A DNA stretch of 9,515 nt from an uncultured archaeon. GTDB taxonomy: Archaea; Iainarchaeota; Iainarchaeia; Iainarchaeales; 0-14-0-20-30-16. Under the pieces are notes generated by a model. That model saw nothing but the letters and a program-made list of their open reading frames with translations, was not told the DNA's origin and searched no databases. Positions 1 through 9,359 of this stretch are shown one piece after another; position 1 is the stretch's first letter; every line of letters begins with the position of its first letter. The DNA lies in assembly GCA_964565125.1 (NCBI GenBank), contig CAZMCX010000027.1, positions 1 to 9,515 of the forward strand, given 5' to 3'. Made by a program: the position numbers and the translations under genes.

Positions 1-1220
1 TTGTAAATCTCTTCTGCAAGCTTCTTGGAATCATGCCTTATTGCTACCCGATCGTTTATCAAGTCTTTAACTACATACTTTGGGTCTTTTGTAATCAAAG
101 GCTCAACAAAGAATTTCCTTTCAGTTGCATAATTCTTCAACTTATCATCAGAAACTTTTGTGCTATTCATTAAAATATAATCTGGGTTGAAATAGTTTTT
201 TATTGTATTAATAAAATCAATTGCCTTAAACCCATGTGTCTCTGGGTATTGAGTCATCACATTCATAACATAAACTTTCTTTGCTTTTGATTTCTTTATC
301 TCTTTTACAATATCATTAACTAGCATATTTGGAATTATGCTTGAATATAAACTTCCGGGGCCAACCACAATTACATCTGCATCTTTTATTGCTGCTTTTA
401 CTCTTGGATTTAGTTTTGCTTCTTGGTTAAGGAAAATATTTTTTATATTCATTCCTTTTGTGTCAATTTCATGTTCCCCAAAGTATTTCGTTCCATCTTT
501 TGAAATTGCGATCACTTCTGCGGGATCAAGAGTTACAGGCAATACCCGCCCCCTACACCTTAACAAAGTTTGCAGGGTCTCTATTGCGGATTCAAAATCA
601 CTATCTTGTGCTAACCTTGTTAAAAGTAAATTCCCTATAGTATGCCCTTGCAGAGAGGTATTTTTTCCAAAACGTTTATTAAAAACCATCCTTAATTCAT
701 CTTTAAATGGGCTTAATGCAATAATACAATTCCTTAAATCCCCGGGGGGTAATACTCCAAATTCTGTTTTTAACAATTGACTAGATCCACCAGAATCCAT
801 TGTAGTAACAACAGCAGTAATATTTGAGGTATGTTCTTTTAAACCATTAAGCAAAGTATATTGTCCCGTACCACCGCCAATAGTAACGATCTTTTTTCCT
901 TTTTCTAATTTTGAATCTAAATATACATTCTCAAACAAATCCTGATTTGCATCTGAAAAAAATCTATAAATTTTAAAAGCAGAAAATAAAATTACAATTA
1001 CAGCAAGTAGCAATAAAATCAGTGCAAAAATTGCCCTTAAAGACATATCAAGACCAATAAGAATACTTAGTTTGTTCAAGATAAAATCAGATAATCTATT
1101 GAAATAAGTCAAAAAGCCAATAAAAAATGCAAAAAAGACAAGAACCAAACTTGCTGCTATTGCAATTATCCACAGCTTTAGATTAGAAGTTAAAAATAAT
1201 GCCTTATTTATCCGGTTCAT
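1..1220 (-). CDS. YvcK/CofD-family (UPF0052, gluconeogenesis-factor-like) protein with an N-terminal two-helix membrane anchor; partial, C-terminus runs off the window
   Basis: Absent from the supplied ORF track because it is truncated by the window edge. The reverse-strand ATG at 1218-1220 opens a stop-free frame down to base 3 (406 codons, hand-translated). The N-terminus is MNRINKALFLTSNLKLWIIAIAASLVLVFFAFFIGFL...AIFALILLLLAVIVILFSAF, which gives two hydrophobic helices. These are followed by KKIVTIGGGTGQYTLLNGLK, AVVTTMDSGGSSQLLKTEFGVLPPGDLRNCIIALS and DADVIVVGPGSLYSSIIPN. Those three segments match the GGGTG / GGSS..PPGD(I/L)RN / GPGS signature I know from YvcK/CofD proteins. Confidence 0.8.
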   Translation of the reverse strand, partial: MNRINKALFLTSNLKLWIIAIAASLVLVFFAFFIGFLTYFNRLSDFILNKLSILIGLDMSLRAIFALILLLLAVIVILFSAFKIYRFFSDANQDLFENVYLDSKLEKGKKIVTIGGGTGQYTLLNGLKEHTSNITAVVTTMDSGGSSQLLKTEFGVLPPGDLRNCIIALSPFKDELRMVFNKRFGKNTSLQGHTIGNLLLTRLAQDSDFESAIETLQTLLRCRGRVLPVTLDPAEVIAISKDGTKYFGEHEIDTKGMNIKNIFLNQEAKLNPRVKAAIKDADVIVVGPGSLYSSIIPNMLVNDIVKEIKKSKAKKVYVMNVMTQYPETHGFKAIDFINTIKNYFNPDYILMNSTKVSDDKLKNYATERKFFVEPLITKDPKYVVKDLINDRVAIRHDSKKLAEEIY

Positions 1221-1270
1221 AATAGTCACTAAAAATATTACAAAAGACAGTAAATAAAGTACCTTTAAGG

Positions 1271-3091: not shown

Positions 3092-3099
3092 TTTTTTTT
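3066..3099 (+). terminator. Hairpin plus T8 run at the thrS stop codon (intrinsic-terminator-like)
   Basis: A perfect 8-bp stem pairs AGAGAACT (3068-3075) with AGTTCTCT (3080-3087) around the loop AAAG. It is followed by TTAA and then T8 at 3092-3099. The stop codon TAA is at 3089-3091. Confidence 0.5.
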
Positions 3100-3298
3100 A
3101 TTCTTTTTCAGGTTCTAATTTTTTGTTAATAAAATACAATACAACATACAAAATTATTGCAGAAACTATTGGAACAATAATATAATACCAAATAGGTAAG
3201 AACTCTTTGCCTTTCCAAAGGTTATCAACTAATATCTGCACATAAGATCCAATTAATGCCAAATAACAGGCCAAATACACAACTTCGTTTTTATTCAT
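3098..3298 (-). CDS. Small (66 aa) two-TM membrane protein, unknown function
   Basis: The ORF has two clear hydrophobic helices (VVYLACYLALIGSYVQILV and IWYYIIVPIVSAIILYVVLYFI). AGGTG (reverse complement of 3307-3311) lies 8 nt upstream of the ATG. I recognise no family. Confidence 0.5.
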   Translation of the reverse strand: MNKNEVVYLACYLALIGSYVQILVDNLWKGKEFLPIWYYIIVPIVSAIILYVVLYFINKKLEPEKE

Positions 3299-3370: not shown

Positions 3371-3398
3371 AAAAAAAGAGAGTAGACATCTCTACTCT
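3371..3398 (-). terminator. Hairpin plus T7 run ending the 311-aa/73-aa transcription unit
   Basis: The minus strand reads AGAGTAGA-GATG-TCTACTCT, an 8-bp perfect stem at 3379-3398, followed by C and T7 (A7 on the plus strand, 3371-3377). The 5' arm contains the TAG stop of the 73-aa ORF. Confidence 0.55.
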
Positions 3399-3613
3399 AT
3401 AAGCTCACCCAATTCTACTGTGTCATCTTGATCATTGGCGATAAATATATCATCCACCATAGACAAAGCTTCGGCCTCATTGTAATCCGCCTGTCCGCTT
3501 AGAGTATCTGATGTATCTTTTGTTGTGCTATCTTTACTTAAAGTAACTCCAAGCACCACTCCAATTACTACTAACACTATTAGCACTAATAATATTGCAA
3601 GCCAAGCTTTCAT
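3392..3613 (-). CDS. Small (73 aa) signal-anchor protein with an acidic C-terminal ectodomain, unknown function
   Basis: The N-terminal helix is strongly hydrophobic (AWLAILLVLIVLVVIGVVLGVTL). The tail is D/E-rich. Its ATG (3611-3613) overlaps the TGA (3610-3612) of the upstream gene as ATGA, which suggests translational coupling. A terminator hairpin sits at its stop codon. Confidence 0.6.
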   Translation of the reverse strand: MKAWLAILLVLIVLVVIGVVLGVTLSKDSTTKDTSDTLSGQADYNEAEALSMVDDIFIANDQDDTVELGELIE

Positions 3614-4545
3614 TCGGAATCACCTTCTACATTCAAATCTACTGAAACAGCTACTTCTGCATTTGAATCTTCGCTGTTGCCATCTTCTTCTCCAAACCAG
3701 TCATCTAATTTATCTTCTACTTTATTTTTTATTTTATCTTTTATTTTACCTTTAAGTTCTTGCTTTTTTTCTGAAATTTTCTTTTTTAATTCTTGTTTTA
3801 TTTCTTCTTTATTTTCTTCTATTTTCTGCTTTATTTCTGCTTTCTTTTCAGCAACCTTTGCTTTTACTTCTTTCTTTACTTTTCCATTGTAAGTTTGGGT
3901 TTTAACTTTTACTTCTTTTATTTTCCACATTAATTCTTTCTTTAATTCTTTTTGAAGACCGCCAAACATCTTTGCAATCTCGCTTCTCATTTCACCATAT
4001 GTTGCAGTACCCGCAGCAATTTTATCTAAAAGGCTTTGATTTTTTACTTCTAAATCTTCAAACAACTTTGCAGCCACTTCATAATTATATTTATTTTTGT
4101 TTTCTTTTATTTCTGCATCCAATTTTTCTACTGATGCTTTTTCCATTGCTTTATATTCATCCTTAATTGTGTTCTTTTCATCTGAGTTCAAATCTTTTGC
4201 GTAAGTCTTAAACTCTTGTGCTAAATCCATTGCTTTTTCTTTGTATGCAAGGAAGTCTTTAACCAAAAATTCTGGCTCTTTTCCAGTTACATCATACCCT
4301 GATACTTCCTCTTTTAGAGCTTTATATTCTGCAATTACTGTTGTTGCATTTTCATCCAAATATGGCAAAGCTAATTCACCAATCATAATATGTTTTTCCA
4401 TTGCTTTTTCCAGTTGTAACATTCTTACTTCTGCACCATTTGTATTTGTAAAATTAGTATATATTTTATCTTCATTAAATGCAAATGATGGTATTGCTAA
4501 TGCTACTACAAAAACCATTGCCAATAACAAATTCTTATAGTTCAT
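3610..4545 (-). CDS. Secreted 311-aa Lys/Glu-rich helical protein with an acidic C-terminal tail, unknown function
   Basis: The N-terminus is signal-peptide-like (MNYKNLLLAMVFVVALAIPSFAF). The body is long and helical, and its C-terminal third is low-complexity K/E (KKEVKAKVAEKKAEIKQKIEENKEEIKQELKKKISEKKQELKGKIKDKIKNKVEDK). It ends in an acidic tail (DDWFGEEDGNSEDSNAE...EGDSE). SD-like GGGGGTG (reverse complement of 4553-4559) lies 7 nt upstream of the ATG. Confidence 0.8.
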   Translation of the reverse strand: MNYKNLLLAMVFVVALAIPSFAFNEDKIYTNFTNTNGAEVRMLQLEKAMEKHIMIGELALPYLDENATTVIAEYKALKEEVSGYDVTGKEPEFLVKDFLAYKEKAMDLAQEFKTYAKDLNSDEKNTIKDEYKAMEKASVEKLDAEIKENKNKYNYEVAAKLFEDLEVKNQSLLDKIAAGTATYGEMRSEIAKMFGGLQKELKKELMWKIKEVKVKTQTYNGKVKKEVKAKVAEKKAEIKQKIEENKEEIKQELKKKISEKKQELKGKIKDKIKNKVEDKLDDWFGEEDGNSEDSNAEVAVSVDLNVEGDSE

Positions 4546-4573
4546 AATCTAACACCCCCATGATATACCTGCT

Positions 4574-4625
4574 GCGGAACTAAATATATACCTTTTCCGG
4601 AATTATCCGGAACAAGGCGGAACTA
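4574..4625. promoter_or_regulatory. Array of four same-orientation SCGGAAY motifs bracketing the TATA-like element (candidate operator)
   Basis: CGGAA begins at 4575, 4598, 4608 and 4618, so the last three are exactly 10 bp apart. The outermost copies are identical 9-mers, GCGGAACTA, at 4574-4582 and 4617-4625. One middle copy is embedded in the palindrome TTCCGGAA (4595-4602). Confidence 0.5.
4581..4598 (-). promoter_or_regulatory. Archaeal-type BRE/TATA-like promoter element for the 311-aa gene
   Basis: The minus strand reads GGAAAAGG-TATATATTTA, a purine-rich BRE-like stretch followed by a TATA-like stretch. Its 3' end is 35 nt upstream of the ATG at 4545. That spacing would place a transcription start just upstream of the GGGGGTG SD. 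Confidence 0.45.
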
Positions 4626-4732: not shown

Positions 4733-5437
4733 CTAGTCTAATAGAACAATAACATTAGACAACCCTTTACTTATTTTCTTAATAAGCCCTTTTTTTTCTA
4801 AACTTAAAAGGTTCCGTGATAATGAGGATTTAGGCAAGTTAAGTTCTTGCAGGATTTTATTCTGAGTTATTTGGCCTTTATTTTTCTTTACTAGATCCAA
4901 GATTTGTTTTTCCCTATCTGTTAAAAAAACCTCTTGCTTTACTTCTTTTTGCACAGACTTAGAAAAATATTTCTTATATCCAATATAACCCACGATGGAC
5001 AAAATAACTAATGCTCCAACAAGATATGCCCACCAATATGATTTCAATAAGGGATTTAAAAAAGAGTATTGCAATTTCAGGTTTAATTTCGAGTTCTCTC
5101 CAAATCCATTAATTATTATTTTATCCTCTTGTTTTATTTTCTGGAAACCAGAGATGTTTAGATAATTTATTTCAGTATTTTTTGGCATCCTTAATTCAAA
5201 AACATAGGACGAAAATATTTCATTAGAATCAAAATTAAAAACCCAAAGCCCATTATTTTTTGAGGTCAAATTTGAATTAAGCCCACTTTGTAAATCGGGG
5301 TAATCAGAATATCCACTTATCAAAACGTCTCCATTAGTTTGTACATCAAACACAACATCAGCATAATAAGAGAAAGAAATTCCCGCCAATAACAAAACAA
5401 ACAATGCTAATAGCCCAGTTTTATTCATAAAAATCAT
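4733..5437 (-). CDS. Membrane-tethered transcriptional regulator: signal/TM helix, ~110-aa ectodomain, TM helix, C-terminal winged helix-turn-helix
   Basis: The N-terminus has a hydrophobic segment (GLLALFVLLLAGISFSYYA). The middle domain looks beta-rich. A second TM helix, WWAYLVGALVILSIVGYIGY, covers residues 134-153. The cytoplasmic tail is LTDREKQILDLVKKNKGQITQNKILQELNLPKSSLSRNLLSLEKKGLIKKISKG, which looks MarR/TrmB-like wHTH. This architecture recalls the archaeal membrane-associated regulators I remember as COG2512. The start is either ATG 5437, which overlaps the upstream TGA as ATGA, or ATG 5428. Confidence 0.75.
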   Translation of the reverse strand: MIFMNKTGLLALFVLLLAGISFSYYADVVFDVQTNGDVLISGYSDYPDLQSGLNSNLTSKNNGLWVFNFDSNEIFSSYVFELRMPKNTEINYLNISGFQKIKQEDKIIINGFGENSKLNLKLQYSFLNPLLKSYWWAYLVGALVILSIVGYIGYKKYFSKSVQKEVKQEVFLTDREKQILDLVKKNKGQITQNKILQELNLPKSSLSRNLLSLEKKGLIKKISKGLSNVIVLLD

Positions 5438-6573
5438 TTTTGTTTTTCTAATATAGAATCTATTTCTTGCTCTAAAGTTATAAACTTATCATAAATAGAT
5501 TCATACCCTTTCCAACTGTTCTGATAAAGATAATAGTCATTATCTGTTATTACTTGTTTTATGTAGGATACACTTTCAGGCAGATATTCCCCATTTACAT
5601 AATATTCCACATCAAAAGTTGTGGGACCATATTTCATTCTACCCAAATATTGACCGGTTTGTGGTTCAACTAGCTCTGCCAAATCTAATTTGTTCAGATC
5701 TGACAAGTAATTTATTTTTTCTTTGGAAAACGCAATAACACAATGTCCCCCAAAAACATCTGCTTTGTTTGGATCTTTTAATACCCCGCATACAATATTA
5801 GGATAAATATACCCAACTTCAAGATTATGTTTTTTTGCGTTTGCATAATACCAAGAATTTGAATTATCTAAAAAGTAGTTCCCAGAATCAGAAATTACAA
5901 ATGCCTCAATACTTATTTCTTTATCAGAACATTTTTCAAGCAGATAATTTATTTCTGCTTTAAATAAAAGGGAAAAGTCTTCACAATCACCACCTTTGTT
6001 CTCCAAAAATTCATTAATAGAAATAAACTTGTCTGTTTTTCCTAAAGTTGTATCATCTTTGTATTCCAAGTTCATAAATTGTTCGTTCACTAAATTAAGG
6101 CAAGCTTCGGCAATATAACAAGAACCTGATTTTTCAGAATAACATTTAGAATCTAGCTTAGATTTTATTGATTTACTTTTTAAGGTTGCATTTTCTTTAA
6201 ACCAATCCAAAGAACTTTGCACCTCGATCTTGTAGCCATTTAATTCTTCTTTTGCGGAGTAAAGCTTAGAAGTTAGTTCCGCAGAGATATCTAGAGCTTT
6301 GTTGTATTCTAGGTTCAGGCCTTTATATTCTTCTACTAATTCATAGTACTTTGTTTGCAGTTCAGCATATTGTTTAGAAAGTTCTAAGTATTGCCCAGAA
6401 AGTAGGTTATAATCATCTAAAAGAGAACCATACTTAAAATTCAATAATTCATAATCACTAGTTAGCTTGTCATAATCAGATGATTTAACAAGATATAAAG
6501 CCACAACTAAGGCAATTACCAATATAGCAATAGAAAACAGAACAAAAATTATTACTTCAAGATATTTTTTCAT
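5434..6573 (-). CDS. Membrane-anchored extracellular transglutaminase-like / papain-fold cysteine enzyme with an N-terminal Tyr/Leu heptad coiled coil
   Basis: The N-terminal TM anchor is VIIFVLFSIAILVIALVVALYLV. Nine consecutive heptads follow, with Tyr at residues 34, 41, 48, 55, 62, 69, 76, 83 and 90. KGGDCEDFSLLF contains Cys197 (codon 5983-5985). FGGHCVIAF contains His277 (codon 5743-5745). LVEPQTG contains Glu303. This Cys..His..acid order and context matches the GDCEDY / H / D-P-T pattern I recall for transglutaminase-like cysteine proteinases (BTLCP / Transglut_core). Confidence 0.8.
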   Translation of the reverse strand: MKKYLEVIIFVLFSIAILVIALVVALYLVKSSDYDKLTSDYELLNFKYGSLLDDYNLLSGQYLELSKQYAELQTKYYELVEEYKGLNLEYNKALDISAELTSKLYSAKEELNGYKIEVQSSLDWFKENATLKSKSIKSKLDSKCYSEKSGSCYIAEACLNLVNEQFMNLEYKDDTTLGKTDKFISINEFLENKGGDCEDFSLLFKAEINYLLEKCSDKEISIEAFVISDSGNYFLDNSNSWYYANAKKHNLEVGYIYPNIVCGVLKDPNKADVFGGHCVIAFSKEKINYLSDLNKLDLAELVEPQTGQYLGRMKYGPTTFDVEYYVNGEYLPESVSYIKQVITDNDYYLYQNSWKGYESIYDKFITLEQEIDSILEKQK

Positions 6574-6644: not shown

Positions 6645-7835
6645 TCATTTTTTAAAAGCAAGTAACCTTTTTGTTTCTTCAATATTAGTTTTTATTTTTT
6701 CTGCAAACTCTTTTGTTTTAGATTGTGTTTTTAAATACAAAGAAAACAGATGTTGCATCTGCTTTGAAAGGTATTTTAAGAATTCTTTCCTCATCTCTTC
6801 TATTGGTTTTTTTGACAAGATAACAATTCCAAATCCGACGATAAGATATAACCAAAAAGAAAATAATCTATCGATAATTACAACAGACAAAGCCAAAGTG
6901 CTGTTTATTCCTAAGATCGACGCAAGATAAACAAAGGATAGTTCATATGCACCCAAACCGCCTGGGAGCATACTTACATTACCTATTATTTCACACAAAG
7001 ACCATAATCCAAGAACTATAAAGAAATTTACTTCAACCCCAAACATCAAAAATACAAAGTAGATTCTTAGTGTACAGATAAATATTTTTAAAACAGATAA
7101 AAAAAGACTAAAAAATATTGTTTTAAAAGACAACATTTTCAAGTTTTTAAGTTCTTTGTAAAATAATGAAAGAATATTTTTTAAAAAATTAAACGCTATA
7201 GAATCAAAAAGTCTAATTTTTATATTAAATACTTTTATAAAATAATAAACTATTATTATTGAAAATATAAACAACAAAATCGCAAATACAATTAATACGA
7301 TTCTATCCATTACCGACGGGAATGGTAAAAGAGCTGAAGAAATCAGGCCAATAGTTAATACAGTCACAACATCAAAGATGTTTTCCATTGCTATAGACAA
7401 AATCACTTGTGAATACTGAATTTTGTAATAGTATTTTAGAATAATTATTCTAAATGCCTCTCCTAATGGTTTAGGTGGAATTCCTAAAGTTACCGCCAAA
7501 CCACAAAGATAATAATACATCTGTTTTAAAGAATACTTTTTTCCATTGTATAGTGAATATCTCAAAGACAATACAAAAAGTTGAACCGCCGACAATATAA
7601 AAAATAAAAGCAAATAATAAACATTAATTTTCCCGTAATTAAATATTTCAAAAAAGCCAAATTTAGAAAACAAATACAAAAAGATTGCAATTACAACTAA
7701 ATACAAAAAAACATATTTTCTAAAGTTAGTAAGAGAATCTACTTTTTTTGCAAAAGTAAAAAGTTTACTATTGAAGTTTTCAAGTATGTTTTCAAGTGAT
7801 CTTTTTGTTTGGGGCTTGCGAACCATAAAAATCAA
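6645..7835 (-). CDS. UPF0104 / LPG-synthase-TM-like (flippase-like) polytopic membrane protein; likely true start is ATG at 7826
   Basis: There are roughly 8 hydrophobic helices. The near-C-terminal segment NVSMLPGGLGAYELSFVYLASILGINSTLALSVVIIDRLFSFWLYLIVG matches the PGG(L/I)GxxE...R signature I recall for the UPF0104 family (PF03706). The track start at 7835 is a TTG directly abutting the upstream stop. An ATG follows 3 codons later (MVRKPQ...). Confidence 0.8.
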   Translation of the reverse strand: MIFMVRKPQTKRSLENILENFNSKLFTFAKKVDSLTNFRKYVFLYLVVIAIFLYLFSKFGFFEIFNYGKINVYYLLLFFILSAVQLFVLSLRYSLYNGKKYSLKQMYYYLCGLAVTLGIPPKPLGEAFRIIILKYYYKIQYSQVILSIAMENIFDVVTVLTIGLISSALLPFPSVMDRIVLIVFAILLFIFSIIIVYYFIKVFNIKIRLFDSIAFNFLKNILSLFYKELKNLKMLSFKTIFFSLFLSVLKIFICTLRIYFVFLMFGVEVNFFIVLGLWSLCEIIGNVSMLPGGLGAYELSFVYLASILGINSTLALSVVIIDRLFSFWLYLIVGFGIVILSKKPIEEMRKEFLKYLSKQMQHLFSLYLKTQSKTKEFAEKIKTNIEETKRLLAFKK

Positions 7836-8930
7836 TTAGAAAAACAAAAACTTCTTTTTAATTCCGCGTTCAATCATTTCAAAAGGATACGGTGTTACAC
7901 CATTGGTTTTTTTCTTATTCAACCTAGCAACAAGTTTGTCTAACTTATGTTCAGATAATGATTCCAAATCATATCTCTTCTTTGCTTTTACATCCAAATT
8001 ATTAAACAAAGAATCAAATAAAAAATTTTGCCTATTAAAATTAAATTTGTCTTTTAAGCCATACTTTGTTTTCTTTATTGTGTTTCTTACTATTTCATAT
8101 CCAATATCAACACTTTTCAAAGATTCAAAGAAGTTCTCTCCAGAAAGGTTATTAAATATTCCACCCGCACTGCCCAATAATAAAGCTTGATCTCCAACTA
8201 ATGTTTTCTTTCCATTATAATTTCCTATTTCTTTGTATTTTATTTCCCCATTAATATCGTAATTATTTTTCAAAACAAAATTATCTATACTGTCTTTAGA
8301 CATTTCAGAAGAAACGAAATACCCGGTTTTACTATCTATTGGACAAACAAACCTGTAAAGGCTCTTACACTCATTAGAAATAAAATAATCTATCACTTTG
8401 GGGTCAAACTTACCTTTTAACTGACAGTAAACCATTTTCTTTTTTGCCAAAGGATAATTGAAAAGTTTATCCCGCACATTTGAATAAAGACCATCACAAC
8501 CAATTATAACATCTGCTTTTCTTAAAGTTCCTTTTCCTTTTTCTTCAAAAAACACATTATTATTAGTTTTATTATAATCAAAAAATCTTGCGGAGTGAAC
8601 TACTTCTTTTCCTTTATGCTGAAGTTTTTTGTAAAGCAAGTATTCAAATGTAGACTTATCATAAATAGAATACATTCCACGTGTCTCTATTTCTGCAATT
8701 TTTCCATAAGGAGAATGGAACCTAACTAAGTCAACGTCATTAATTAAAGCAGAATTACCAATTTTTTTAAGGTCATATTTTTCTAAAAAAGAGTTATTCA
8801 ATACAACATAATCTCCTTGCTCGCCTAAGATCTCCGGTTTTCTATCAAAAATGTGGTAATCCAAAGAGAACTCTGAAAGATAATTAGCTAATCTTAACCC
8901 AACAACATTGGCCCCGATTATGTATATCAT
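7836..8930 (-). CDS. FAD/NAD(P)-binding oxidoreductase, geranylgeranyl-reductase-family-like, with divergent cofactor motifs
   Basis: The N-terminal Rossmann-like segment is IYIIGANVVGLRLANYL...YHIFD, where GxNxxG replaces GxGxxG but the terminal acidic residue is retained. VIIGCDGLYSNVR resembles the GADGxxSxxR motif. LVGDQALLLGSAGGIFNNLSGEN resembles GDAAG...P..GEG. AGGTG (reverse complement of 8937-8941) lies 6 nt upstream of the ATG. Confidence 0.6.
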   Translation of the reverse strand: MIYIIGANVVGLRLANYLSEFSLDYHIFDRKPEILGEQGDYVVLNNSFLEKYDLKKIGNSALINDVDLVRFHSPYGKIAEIETRGMYSIYDKSTFEYLLYKKLQHKGKEVVHSARFFDYNKTNNNVFFEEKGKGTLRKADVIIGCDGLYSNVRDKLFNYPLAKKKMVYCQLKGKFDPKVIDYFISNECKSLYRFVCPIDSKTGYFVSSEMSKDSIDNFVLKNNYDINGEIKYKEIGNYNGKKTLVGDQALLLGSAGGIFNNLSGENFFESLKSVDIGYEIVRNTIKKTKYGLKDKFNFNRQNFLFDSLFNNLDVKAKKRYDLESLSEHKLDKLVARLNKKKTNGVTPYPFEMIERGIKKKFLFF

Positions 8931-9215: not shown

Positions 9216-9359
9216 TGCCAAGGGGGAGACTTGAACTCCCGGCCTCCAGATTTCTCTCTGAAATCTGGTTTGTCTAATCATCGCTCGTAAAACAAGTTCA
9301 TAATTCATAACCACAAATAGTTATGAGTCTGGCGCTCCAACCAACTGAGCTACCTTGGC
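9216..9359 (-). tRNA. Elongator-type tRNA with anticodon CAU (Met, or Ile2 if C34 is modified), interrupted by a 70-nt intron at 37/38; no encoded CCA
   Basis: Hand-folded on the minus strand. The acceptor stem pairs GCCAAGG with CCTTGGC, followed by discriminator A. The D arm is GCTC-AGTTGGTTG-GAGC. The anticodon stem pairs CCAGA with TCTGG, with loop CTCATA|A (CAT at 9323-9325). The variable region is AGGCC. The T arm is GGGAG-TTCAAGT-CTCCC. Exon 1 is 9322-9359, the intron is 9252-9321 and exon 2 is 9216-9251. The boundary is ambiguous by 1 nt because an A flanks both junctions. It lacks the initiator hallmarks (A1:U72, and GGG/CCC in the anticodon stem). Confidence 0.85.
9252..9321 (-). 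other. tRNA intron (70 nt), canonical position, presumably spliced by an archaeal-type endonuclease
   Basis: The sequence is ACTATTTGTGGTTATGAATTATGAACTTGTTTTACGAGCGATGATTAGACAAACCAGATTTCAGAGAGAA. Removing it restores a standard 74-nt cloverleaf. C32-U33-C34 can pair with the GAG near the intron 3' end, flanked by A-rich unpaired bases. This approximates a relaxed bulge-helix-bulge, but I could not draw a perfect 3-4-3 BHB. Confidence 0.7.

Follow-up and report, generated by a model that had tools for sequence, protein, structure and literature searches.

We describe a gene, here called c0, on the minus strand (positions 4733-5437) of a 9,515-nucleotide stretch of DNA from an uncultured archaeon of the phylum Iainarchaeota (contig CAZMCX010000027.1 of assembly GCA_964565125.1). 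This stretch, hereafter the window, is a complete 9.5-kb contig with a GC content of 31%; the host assembly comprises 838 kb and is 82% complete, and the closest public relative found by sequence search was a metagenome-assembled genome (MAG) labelled 'Candidatus ainarchaeum sp.' We propose, with a probability of about 70%, that the product of c0 is a membrane-tethered regulator that acts on an array of TTCCG boxes belonging to the downstream operon, which encodes a secreted protein (c1) and a small membrane-anchored protein.

A preliminary description of this DNA had divided the 234-amino-acid (aa) product of c0 into four parts: an N-terminal signal or transmembrane (TM) segment, a beta-rich ectodomain of about 110 aa, a second TM helix and a C-terminal winged helix-turn-helix (wHTH) domain. 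The listing of open reading frames (ORFs), hydropathy, Pfam profiles and an AlphaFold2 (AF2) model all agree with this layout. Translation could equally well start at the methionine at residue 4 (nt 5428), since that is where relatives begin. In the full-length model, which reached a predicted local distance difference test (pLDDT) score of 78.5, strands occupied residues 24-126, a helix followed at 135-158, and an H-beta-H-H-wing domain formed the C-terminal part. A Kyte-Doolittle scan likewise found two hydrophobic segments, at residues ~8-30 and 134-156. Hydropathy and the family pattern placed a signal peptide at residues 1-23 (5369-5437, minus strand), in which an n-region with K6, an h-region and the c-region SFS are followed by YYAD. 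This is a Sec-type layout, with small residues at -3 and -1 preceding the near-invariant YYAD. To evaluate the topology, we aligned 64 members of the regulator family. Their signal segments share a K/R-containing n-region and a short h-region, 48 of them carry A or S at position -3, and YYAD begins 0-2 residues past the predicted end of the signal peptide. Of the two possibilities that had been left open for the N-terminal segment, a signal peptide that is cleaved off is the most likely, so that mature c0 would be a type I single-pass protein.

The remaining parts follow in order along the minus strand. The ectodomain (residues 24-133, 110 aa; 5039-5368) was modeled by AF2 as a beta-sandwich, in line with the guess of the preliminary description that it is beta-rich. 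When the ectodomain was modeled alone, using 49 sequences translated from the loci, the pLDDT was 95 with a predicted TM-score (pTM) of 0.87. The TM helix (residues 134-156; 4970-5038) was assigned from hydropathy, charge bias and the AF2 helix, and its Kyte-Doolittle average is 1.83 against a family mean of 2.5. Among the 64 members, the 15 residues before this helix contain 1.5 K+R on average and the 15 residues after it contain 5.3. Therefore, by the positive-inside rule, the ectodomain lies outside and the wHTH in the cytoplasm, which is the topology that the preliminary description had put forward. A basic linker (residues 157-171; 4925-4969) was predicted to be disordered, with pLDDT below 50 at residues 159-169 within a disordered stretch at 159-173. 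Its length varies in the family, so that 39-64 aa separate the end of the TM helix from the recognition helix, and the wHTH is predicted to be held 15-35 residues from the membrane on the cytoplasmic face.

The wHTH (residues 172-232; 4742-4924) was assigned from Pfam profiles and the modeled fold, and contains the recognition helix PKSSLSRN. It matches Pfam DUF7343 (PF24034) over residues 174-232 with an E-value of 2.6e-13 and 50 bits, well above the cut-off of 27.6, and it is the sole DUF7343 match in the 838-kb genome. It also passes the cut-offs of MarR_2 (34.8 bits against 27; E-value 1.8e-8) and HTH_24, but falls short of those of MarR (PF01047; 20.3 bits against 24.6) and TrmB (20.5 bits against 25.6). 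Nothing follows the wHTH, and thus there is no sugar-binding domain of the TrmB kind. Foldseek superposed the wHTH on MarR, ArsR/HlyU and AspA with deviations of 1.1-1.6 A over ~60 residues, and several of the matching structures had been solved in complex with DNA. The profiles and the structural matches therefore agree that the C-terminal region has a DNA-binding fold.

We then asked how widely this protein occurs. A word-indexed search yielded only six relatives. A profile search against 1.84 billion cluster representatives (50%-identity clusters) gave at least 230 representatives that match c0 at E<1e-30, nearly all of them 220-300 aa long and matching from end to end; the layout is therefore conserved far beyond chance. 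We also scanned one genome per species with a profile built from 18 sequences and obtained 54 loci. These lie in MAGs labelled Woesearchaeota, Nanoarchaeota/Nanobdellota, Aenigmatarchaeota, Iainarchaeota/Diapherotrites and Altiarchaeota, and some in MAGs labelled 'uncultured Methanosarcinales'. DUF7343 was matched by 69 of 70 family members, and the recognition-helix motif PKSS(L/V)SRN(I/L/V) was invariant in all loci. Among 200 genomes sampled from the window's own phylum, 32 carry the ectodomain, nearly always as a single copy.

The sequence between c0 and c1 gave the second line of evidence. CGGAA sites near c0 had earlier been singled out as a candidate operator, and we found that they form a phylogenetically conserved array at the adjacent promoter. 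A motif scan located TTCCG on the minus strand at 4622-4618, 4612-4608, 4602-4598 and 4579-4575 (array 4575-4622), the third box being part of the palindrome TTCCGGAA. An A-rich TFB-recognition element (BRE) and TATA box, TATATATTTA, lies at 4590-4581, and a Shine-Dalgarno-like GGGGGTG precedes c1 at 4559-4553. From the stop codon of c0 to the start of c1, the coding strand can be written as TTCCG-cctTG-TTCCG-gataa-TTCCGG-aaaagg-TATATATTTA-g-TTCCG ... GGGGGTG ... ATG. In other words, three GTTCCG direct repeats with an exact 10-bp period abut the BRE/TATA, and a fourth box sits between the TATA box and the expected start. Five of the 12 CGGAA/TTCCG matches in the window fall inside these 48 bp, for which hand arithmetic with the genome-wide rate gave a Poisson probability of ~4e-9.

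To see whether the same arrangement occurs in relatives, we calculated TTCCG densities and array counts in 50 loci. The density was 8.9 per kb within 250 nt past the c0 stop, compared with 0.56 per kb per strand elsewhere. A TTCCG-N4-6-TTCCG array was present within these 250 nt in 33 of the 50 loci, whereas the remaining ~630 kb contained only a handful, and a similar arrangement of boxes was visible by eye in almost every locus. In most loci the operator begins 0-150 nt past the stop codon. From 36 anchored promoters we derived the consensus ttgTTCCg..ttgTTCCG.tt..TTCCGG..AAaaTttATAt.tTGTTCCa, in which the starts of boxes 1-3 are exactly 10 nt apart and box 4 begins 23 nt after box 3. This 10/10/23 spacing is fixed from 24% to 56% GC and in five DPANN phyla. 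Box 3 reads TTCCG in 32 of the 36 promoters, while box 4 reads TTCCA in 21 and TTCCG in 15. Where c1 has been displaced (L022, L026 and L056), the array has moved with it and stands in front of c1. At two further loci (L050, 1843-4314; L053, 6249-8726), a TTCC(G/A) array heads an operon that includes the regulator: it is followed by genes for a lipoprotein of 279 aa and for proteins of 70 and 171 aa, and the regulator gene stands last, so that the regulator would control its own operon there.

The array occurs once in the 838-kb assembly. We considered a wider regulon but rejected it, as no second TTCCG-N4-6-TTCCG array exists in the 838 kb and the other TTCCGGAA palindromes are isolated and intragenic. 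An RNA element was also rejected, since no Rfam family matched the region between c0 and c1. Covariation between recognition helix and box was uninformative because both are invariant. The comparison with c1 homologues that have no regulator was more telling. No TTCC(G/A) array was found near the c1 homologues of four regulator-less genomes or near an extra c1 copy in a regulator-bearing genome; these array-less homologues (L058-L063; genomes G010, G048, G177, G194 and G170, and the second copy in G119) have plain A/T-rich promoters. Therefore, the array co-varies with the regulator gene and not with c1 as such, and c1 is apparently used both with and without control by the regulator. These observations bear on the alternative that some other factor binds the array, and that the wHTH plays a non-regulatory part in a three-protein surface complex, either tethering DNA to the membrane or contacting a protein. 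Some wHTH domains do mediate protein contacts, and all three proteins are predicted to be membrane or surface proteins that always occur together. However, an array that is found only beside the regulator gene, a recognition helix and box sequence that both remain invariant across phyla, and a once-per-genome position bracketing TATA, which suits a promoter switch and not a structural tether, make this alternative very improbable.

Next, we analyzed the genes behind the promoter. ORFs were called across all loci and their products clustered by BLAST. The gene c1 (3610-4545, minus strand) adjoins c0 downstream and encodes a 311-aa secreted, highly charged helical protein. In 37 of 53 loci it follows c0 directly and is encoded on the same strand; in three more it is displaced, and four loci stop at a contig edge; diverged pairs of c1 and the small gene were also present in several loci that the BLAST clustering had missed. 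In one of these (L052), the secreted protein has 518 aa, and the protein encoded after it has 68 aa and ends in VEVGELI. Members of the c1 family, ~330 aa in size, have an AxA-type signal peptide, a variable acidic stretch and a conserved GAxVRLLQLEKxIxxNI motif, and their helix of ~250 residues is 35% charged (the window copy contains 18% K and 15% E). We found no Pfam or PDB relative of c1, which the source records annotate as 'hypothetical protein'; when a known family was sought, only scattered noise of the coiled-coil or apolipoprotein type appeared. In 16 of 31 c1 proteins a GG dipeptide lies within the last eight residues (for example IGGGRPE, GRGGRE and QKGGSK), and it may be a processing or attachment signal.

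The second gene (3392-3613, minus strand), identified from the ORF and its alignment, overlaps c1 by ATGA and encodes a 73-aa acidic membrane-anchored protein. Across loci the protein has 63-77 aa and the 4-bp overlap is kept in most of them. Its alignment contains a signal or anchor segment, a highly acidic middle, an invariant Gly and, at the extreme C-terminus, the invariant motif (V/I)E(I/L)G(E/D)(M/L)(I/V), which is VELGELIE in the window and VEIGEMI in most relatives. A lipobox-like Cys is present in 16 of 23 small proteins, and the mature part has an isoelectric point of ~4. Among the 200 sampled genomes, c1 is present in all 32 that bear the regulator, occurs alone in five, and is missing together with the regulator from ~160. 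The preliminary description had suggested that homologues of c0 might keep a conserved neighbourhood, and the downstream pair of c1 and the small gene is indeed such a neighbourhood.

On the upstream side the picture was different. A gene for a 379-aa membrane-anchored protein resembling transglutaminases and LapG (5434-6573, minus strand) overlaps c0 by ATGA; c0 had been described as lying between a surface enzyme gene and a candidate operator. The matches to this enzyme are marginal (Transglut_core, E-value 0.07; LapG, 0.03; PDB 4fgo, 0.028). We rejected a conserved pairing of c0 with the transglutaminase-like gene, which is found in only three of 53 loci, all of them close relatives. Thus, of the expectation that this pairing and the CGGAA sites would recur together, the sites were conserved across loci and the enzyme gene was specific to one lineage. 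Farther upstream in the window (6645-8930, minus strand) lie genes for a geranylgeranyl-reductase-like flavoprotein and an LPG_synthase_TM flippase-like protein. The same arrangement occurs in the two closest relatives (L001, 2537-4852; L002, 689-2986), and in L002 a radical-SAM/UPF0004 gene is inserted between these genes.

Based on these results, we propose the following mechanism. After export and probable cleavage of the signal peptide, the beta-sandwich would face outward, and the TM helix and basic linker would hold the wHTH. Through its invariant PKSS(L/V)SRN helix, the wHTH would bind the (T)GTTCC(G/A) boxes, and boxes arranged head to tail one helical turn apart would offer one face of the DNA to several copies of the wHTH hung from the membrane. 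Box 3 would abut the purine-rich BRE, and with transcription predicted to start near 4560, box 4 would occupy about -19 to -15. Since a BRE/TATA of consensus quality lies between boxes 3 and 4, the bound state would most likely block recruitment of transcription factor B (TFB) and TATA-binding protein (TBP) or of polymerase. Judged from the positions of the boxes, repression has a little more than an even chance, and the good BRE/TATA consensus would suit a strong promoter held in check by repression. The upstream boxes might instead serve activation, similar to that by factors binding just upstream of the BRE; this is a real but weaker alternative, and dual or dose-dependent control through the weaker box 4, so often TTCCA, is a less probable one. 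In addition, the wHTH would be made last, with the operator 0-150 nt past the stop codon, so that co-translational insertion could deliver it close to the only target it has. The strictness of the cis arrangement, like the reversal of the domain order, would thereby be explained.

Several points weigh against the tethered regulator. Domains of the MarR/TrmB type normally act as dimers on palindromes, whereas the array consists of direct repeats, and c0 contains no cytoplasmic dimerization element. The ectodomain has no recognizable ligand site and no significant structural relative in Foldseek, so that its sensing role is assumed, and whether c0 represses or activates is guessed from where the boxes lie. 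The family is patchy across families, being found in ~16% of the sampled genomes of the phylum, and a few members, such as that of L030, are without c1 and the array. Finally, the genome encodes M50 site-2 proteases, so that action dependent on release from the membrane is possible.

The last point leads to an alternative in which the membrane form is an inactive store, and a signal at the ectodomain triggers site-1/site-2 cleavage that frees the wHTH for the TTCCG boxes. Such a protein would be nearer to membrane transcription factors controlled by regulated intramembrane proteolysis than to ToxR. Three Peptidase_M50 (site-2 protease) homologues in the genome, Gly residues inside the TM helix and the disorder of the linker between helix and wHTH are consistent with it. 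However, there is no conserved cleavage motif, and M50 proteases are near-universal, our control search having matched 14 of 14 reference genomes. Furthermore, the 10-bp phasing on one face of the DNA and the closeness of the operator to the stop codon are more natural for a tethered protein. We thus regard release by proteolysis as improbable.

We also searched for relatives of the ectodomain. No Pfam family matched it consistently, even at E-values up to 1, and no PDB match was found in sequence and profile searches. The full-length model retrieved mainly wHTH proteins in Foldseek, and a search with the ectodomain model returned nothing at E-values up to 0.001. The best matches beyond this limit were the luminal domain of ribophorin I/Ost1 (E-values 0.07-0.9; TM-score 0.50-0.57 on the query) and, also among the top matches, the Mycobacterium tuberculosis lipoprotein LppM (E-value 0.11). 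Ribophorin I also resembles c0 in its general layout, with a beta-sandwich on the outer side, a single TM helix and a domain in the cytosol. However, the identities of these two proteins to the ectodomain are 6-12% at E-values of 0.07-0.9, neither is supported by profile or sequence comparison, and Pfam Ribophorin_I did not match the ectodomain even at E-values up to 1. We therefore interpret the similarity as a probable resemblance of shape only. Apart from these, weak matches to the ectodomain profile (E-values 1e-7 to 1e-8) were observed in genomes that lack the module, inside ORFs of 311-317 aa (G003:C2:109324-109482, G022:C13:2597-2848 and G117:C3:19003-19263); the beta-sandwich may have a distant relative there, built into a different protein.

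The ectodomain would set the occupancy of the boxes according to a signal from outside. No partners other than c1 and the small protein are shared by the whole family, and the simplest idea is therefore that the products of the module feed back on it: the most economical signal would be c1 or the C-terminal peptide of the small protein, giving feedback on a surface structure. An alternative is that the ectodomain senses an external or host cue, such as a lipid, a glycan or contact with the host surface, and turns on the surface protein for episymbiosis. DPANN archaea are host-dependent, and the nearest fold matches, Ost1/ribophorin I and LppM, are membrane-proximal beta-sandwiches. In the window's lineage c0 also follows the lipid-related geranylgeranyl-reductase-like and LPG_synthase_TM flippase-like genes, and c1 gave weak apolipoprotein-like matches. 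However, the fold matches are not significant (E-values of at least 0.07), the lipid-gene neighbourhood is limited to three close relatives, and the partners kept throughout the family are c1 and the small protein. We consider an external cue rather unlikely. A still more speculative extension of the feedback idea, which we judge to be unlikely, is that the three genes together make up a feedback circuit at the cell surface that needs no further parts and is of ancient origin in the DPANN archaea. The ectodomain would bind the (V/I)E(I/L)GE(M/L)I peptide or the GAxVRLLQLEK region and gauge free versus engaged assembly (for example upon host contact), and would signal through the TM helix to the same-face wHTH array over TATA, its cis target having been reached co-translationally.

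The preliminary description had likened the protein to ToxR and CadC with the domain order reversed, and the architecture agrees with this. Like ToxR, TcpP and CadC, c0 is predicted to be a single-pass protein whose extracytoplasmic domain is joined to a wHTH with no kinase, and which serves few promoters. ToxR is also said, in work by Goss et al. in 2013, to recognize tandem direct repeats with helical phasing. However, ToxR and CadC have an N-terminal cytoplasmic wHTH of the OmpR type, whereas c0 is type I, dependent on a signal peptide, and has a C-terminal wHTH of the MarR/DUF7343 type. Trans_reg_C was absent among the 17 Pfam matches and the domain order is the reverse, so that c0 does not belong with ToxR and CadC; its ectodomain is unrelated to those of ToxR, TcpP and CadC, it would work at an archaeal TBP/TFB promoter, and the likeness involves no homology. 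In more general terms, a one-component system, as Ulrich, Koonin and Zhulin reportedly put it in 2005, joins an input (sensor) domain, which binds or responds to a signal, to an output domain; c0 has a folded, conserved ectodomain to which no ligand, pocket or known sensor family could be assigned from Pfam, PDB or Foldseek. A canonical MarR protein is soluble, has ~140 aa, dimerizes through helices at both termini and binds palindromic sites. None of this applies to c0: it ends at the wing, ~60 residues past the linker, and its operator consists of direct repeats. DUF7343 is a domain of unknown function, and the wHTH of c0 shares it in addition to MarR_2/HTH_24.

The earlier statement that archaeal membrane regulators of this kind are essentially uncharacterized requires correction on one side. 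ArnR and ArnR1 of Sulfolobus acidocaldarius have been studied as membrane-bound one-component HTH regulators that activate the adjacent flaB (PMC6396743). They have a cytoplasmic N-terminal HTH, HAMP-like and sensor domains and two C-terminal TM helices, and their boxes are inverted repeats, TCGAC-N5-GTCGA, which lie upstream of the core promoter between -43 and -84 (PMC6396743). They resemble c0 in being archaeal and membrane-bound and in having paired or multiple boxes at the promoter of a neighbouring surface-structure gene. ArnR has no ectodomain, whereas c0 does; the wHTH of c0 is C-terminal, and its boxes are direct repeats on both sides of TATA. With its order of signal peptide, ectodomain, TM helix and wHTH, c0 is not an ArnR-like protein. 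The census of transmembrane transcription regulators (TTRs) by Demey et al. (2023) found them in 367 of 404 archaeal species, at ~4 per genome and mostly single-pass (PMC10269533). A TTR is defined there by a DNA-binding domain and at least one TM region (PMC10269533), and c0 falls under this definition. A term search of that paper (PMC10269533) found no mention of DPANN, MarR or TrmB, and no family with the ectodomain, operator or cassette of c0. Our literature search likewise retrieved no paper that mentions DUF7343, only irrelevant papers for COG2512, and no DPANN paper that describes the module. We thus found no experimental or literature record of the c0 family and its topology; its novelty lies in joining a type I topology and a new ectodomain to direct repeats that would clamp TATA and to a dedicated secreted-protein cassette.

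We also observed other features in the window. Downstream of the cassette, a 66-aa ORF with two TM segments is located at 3098-3298 (minus strand), and a 66-aa gene stands likewise in L001, which is 83% identical. At 9216-9359 (minus strand), Rfam reported a tRNA of 144 nt with 57 bits, whereas ARAGORN listed none for the whole window; an archaeal tRNA with an intron is the probable explanation. At positions 3-1229 (minus strand), a CofD/YvcK-family protein (TIGR01826, E-value 1e-86) carries ~110 additional residues at its N-terminus that include hydrophobic segments, which suggests a membrane-anchored form.

To our knowledge, gene regulation in DPANN archaea is little understood, and their regulator repertoires are small. 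The present analysis defines a complete predicted regulatory unit, consisting of a regulator, an exact operator, a core promoter and two target genes, whose geometry is unchanged in at least five DPANN phyla. It would provide a minimal model for a membrane-tethered factor at an archaeal TBP/TFB promoter, and a first concrete predicted function and DNA target for a subset of the Pfam DUF7343 proteins, while the operator motif could be used to annotate DPANN genomes. The unit also points to an uncharacterized pair of secreted and anchored proteins, which is likely located at the cell surface, that is, at the interface with the host. If the speculation concerning the feedback circuit is true, then it would represent a new signaling logic for archaea and possibly a handle on how episymbionts sense their hosts.

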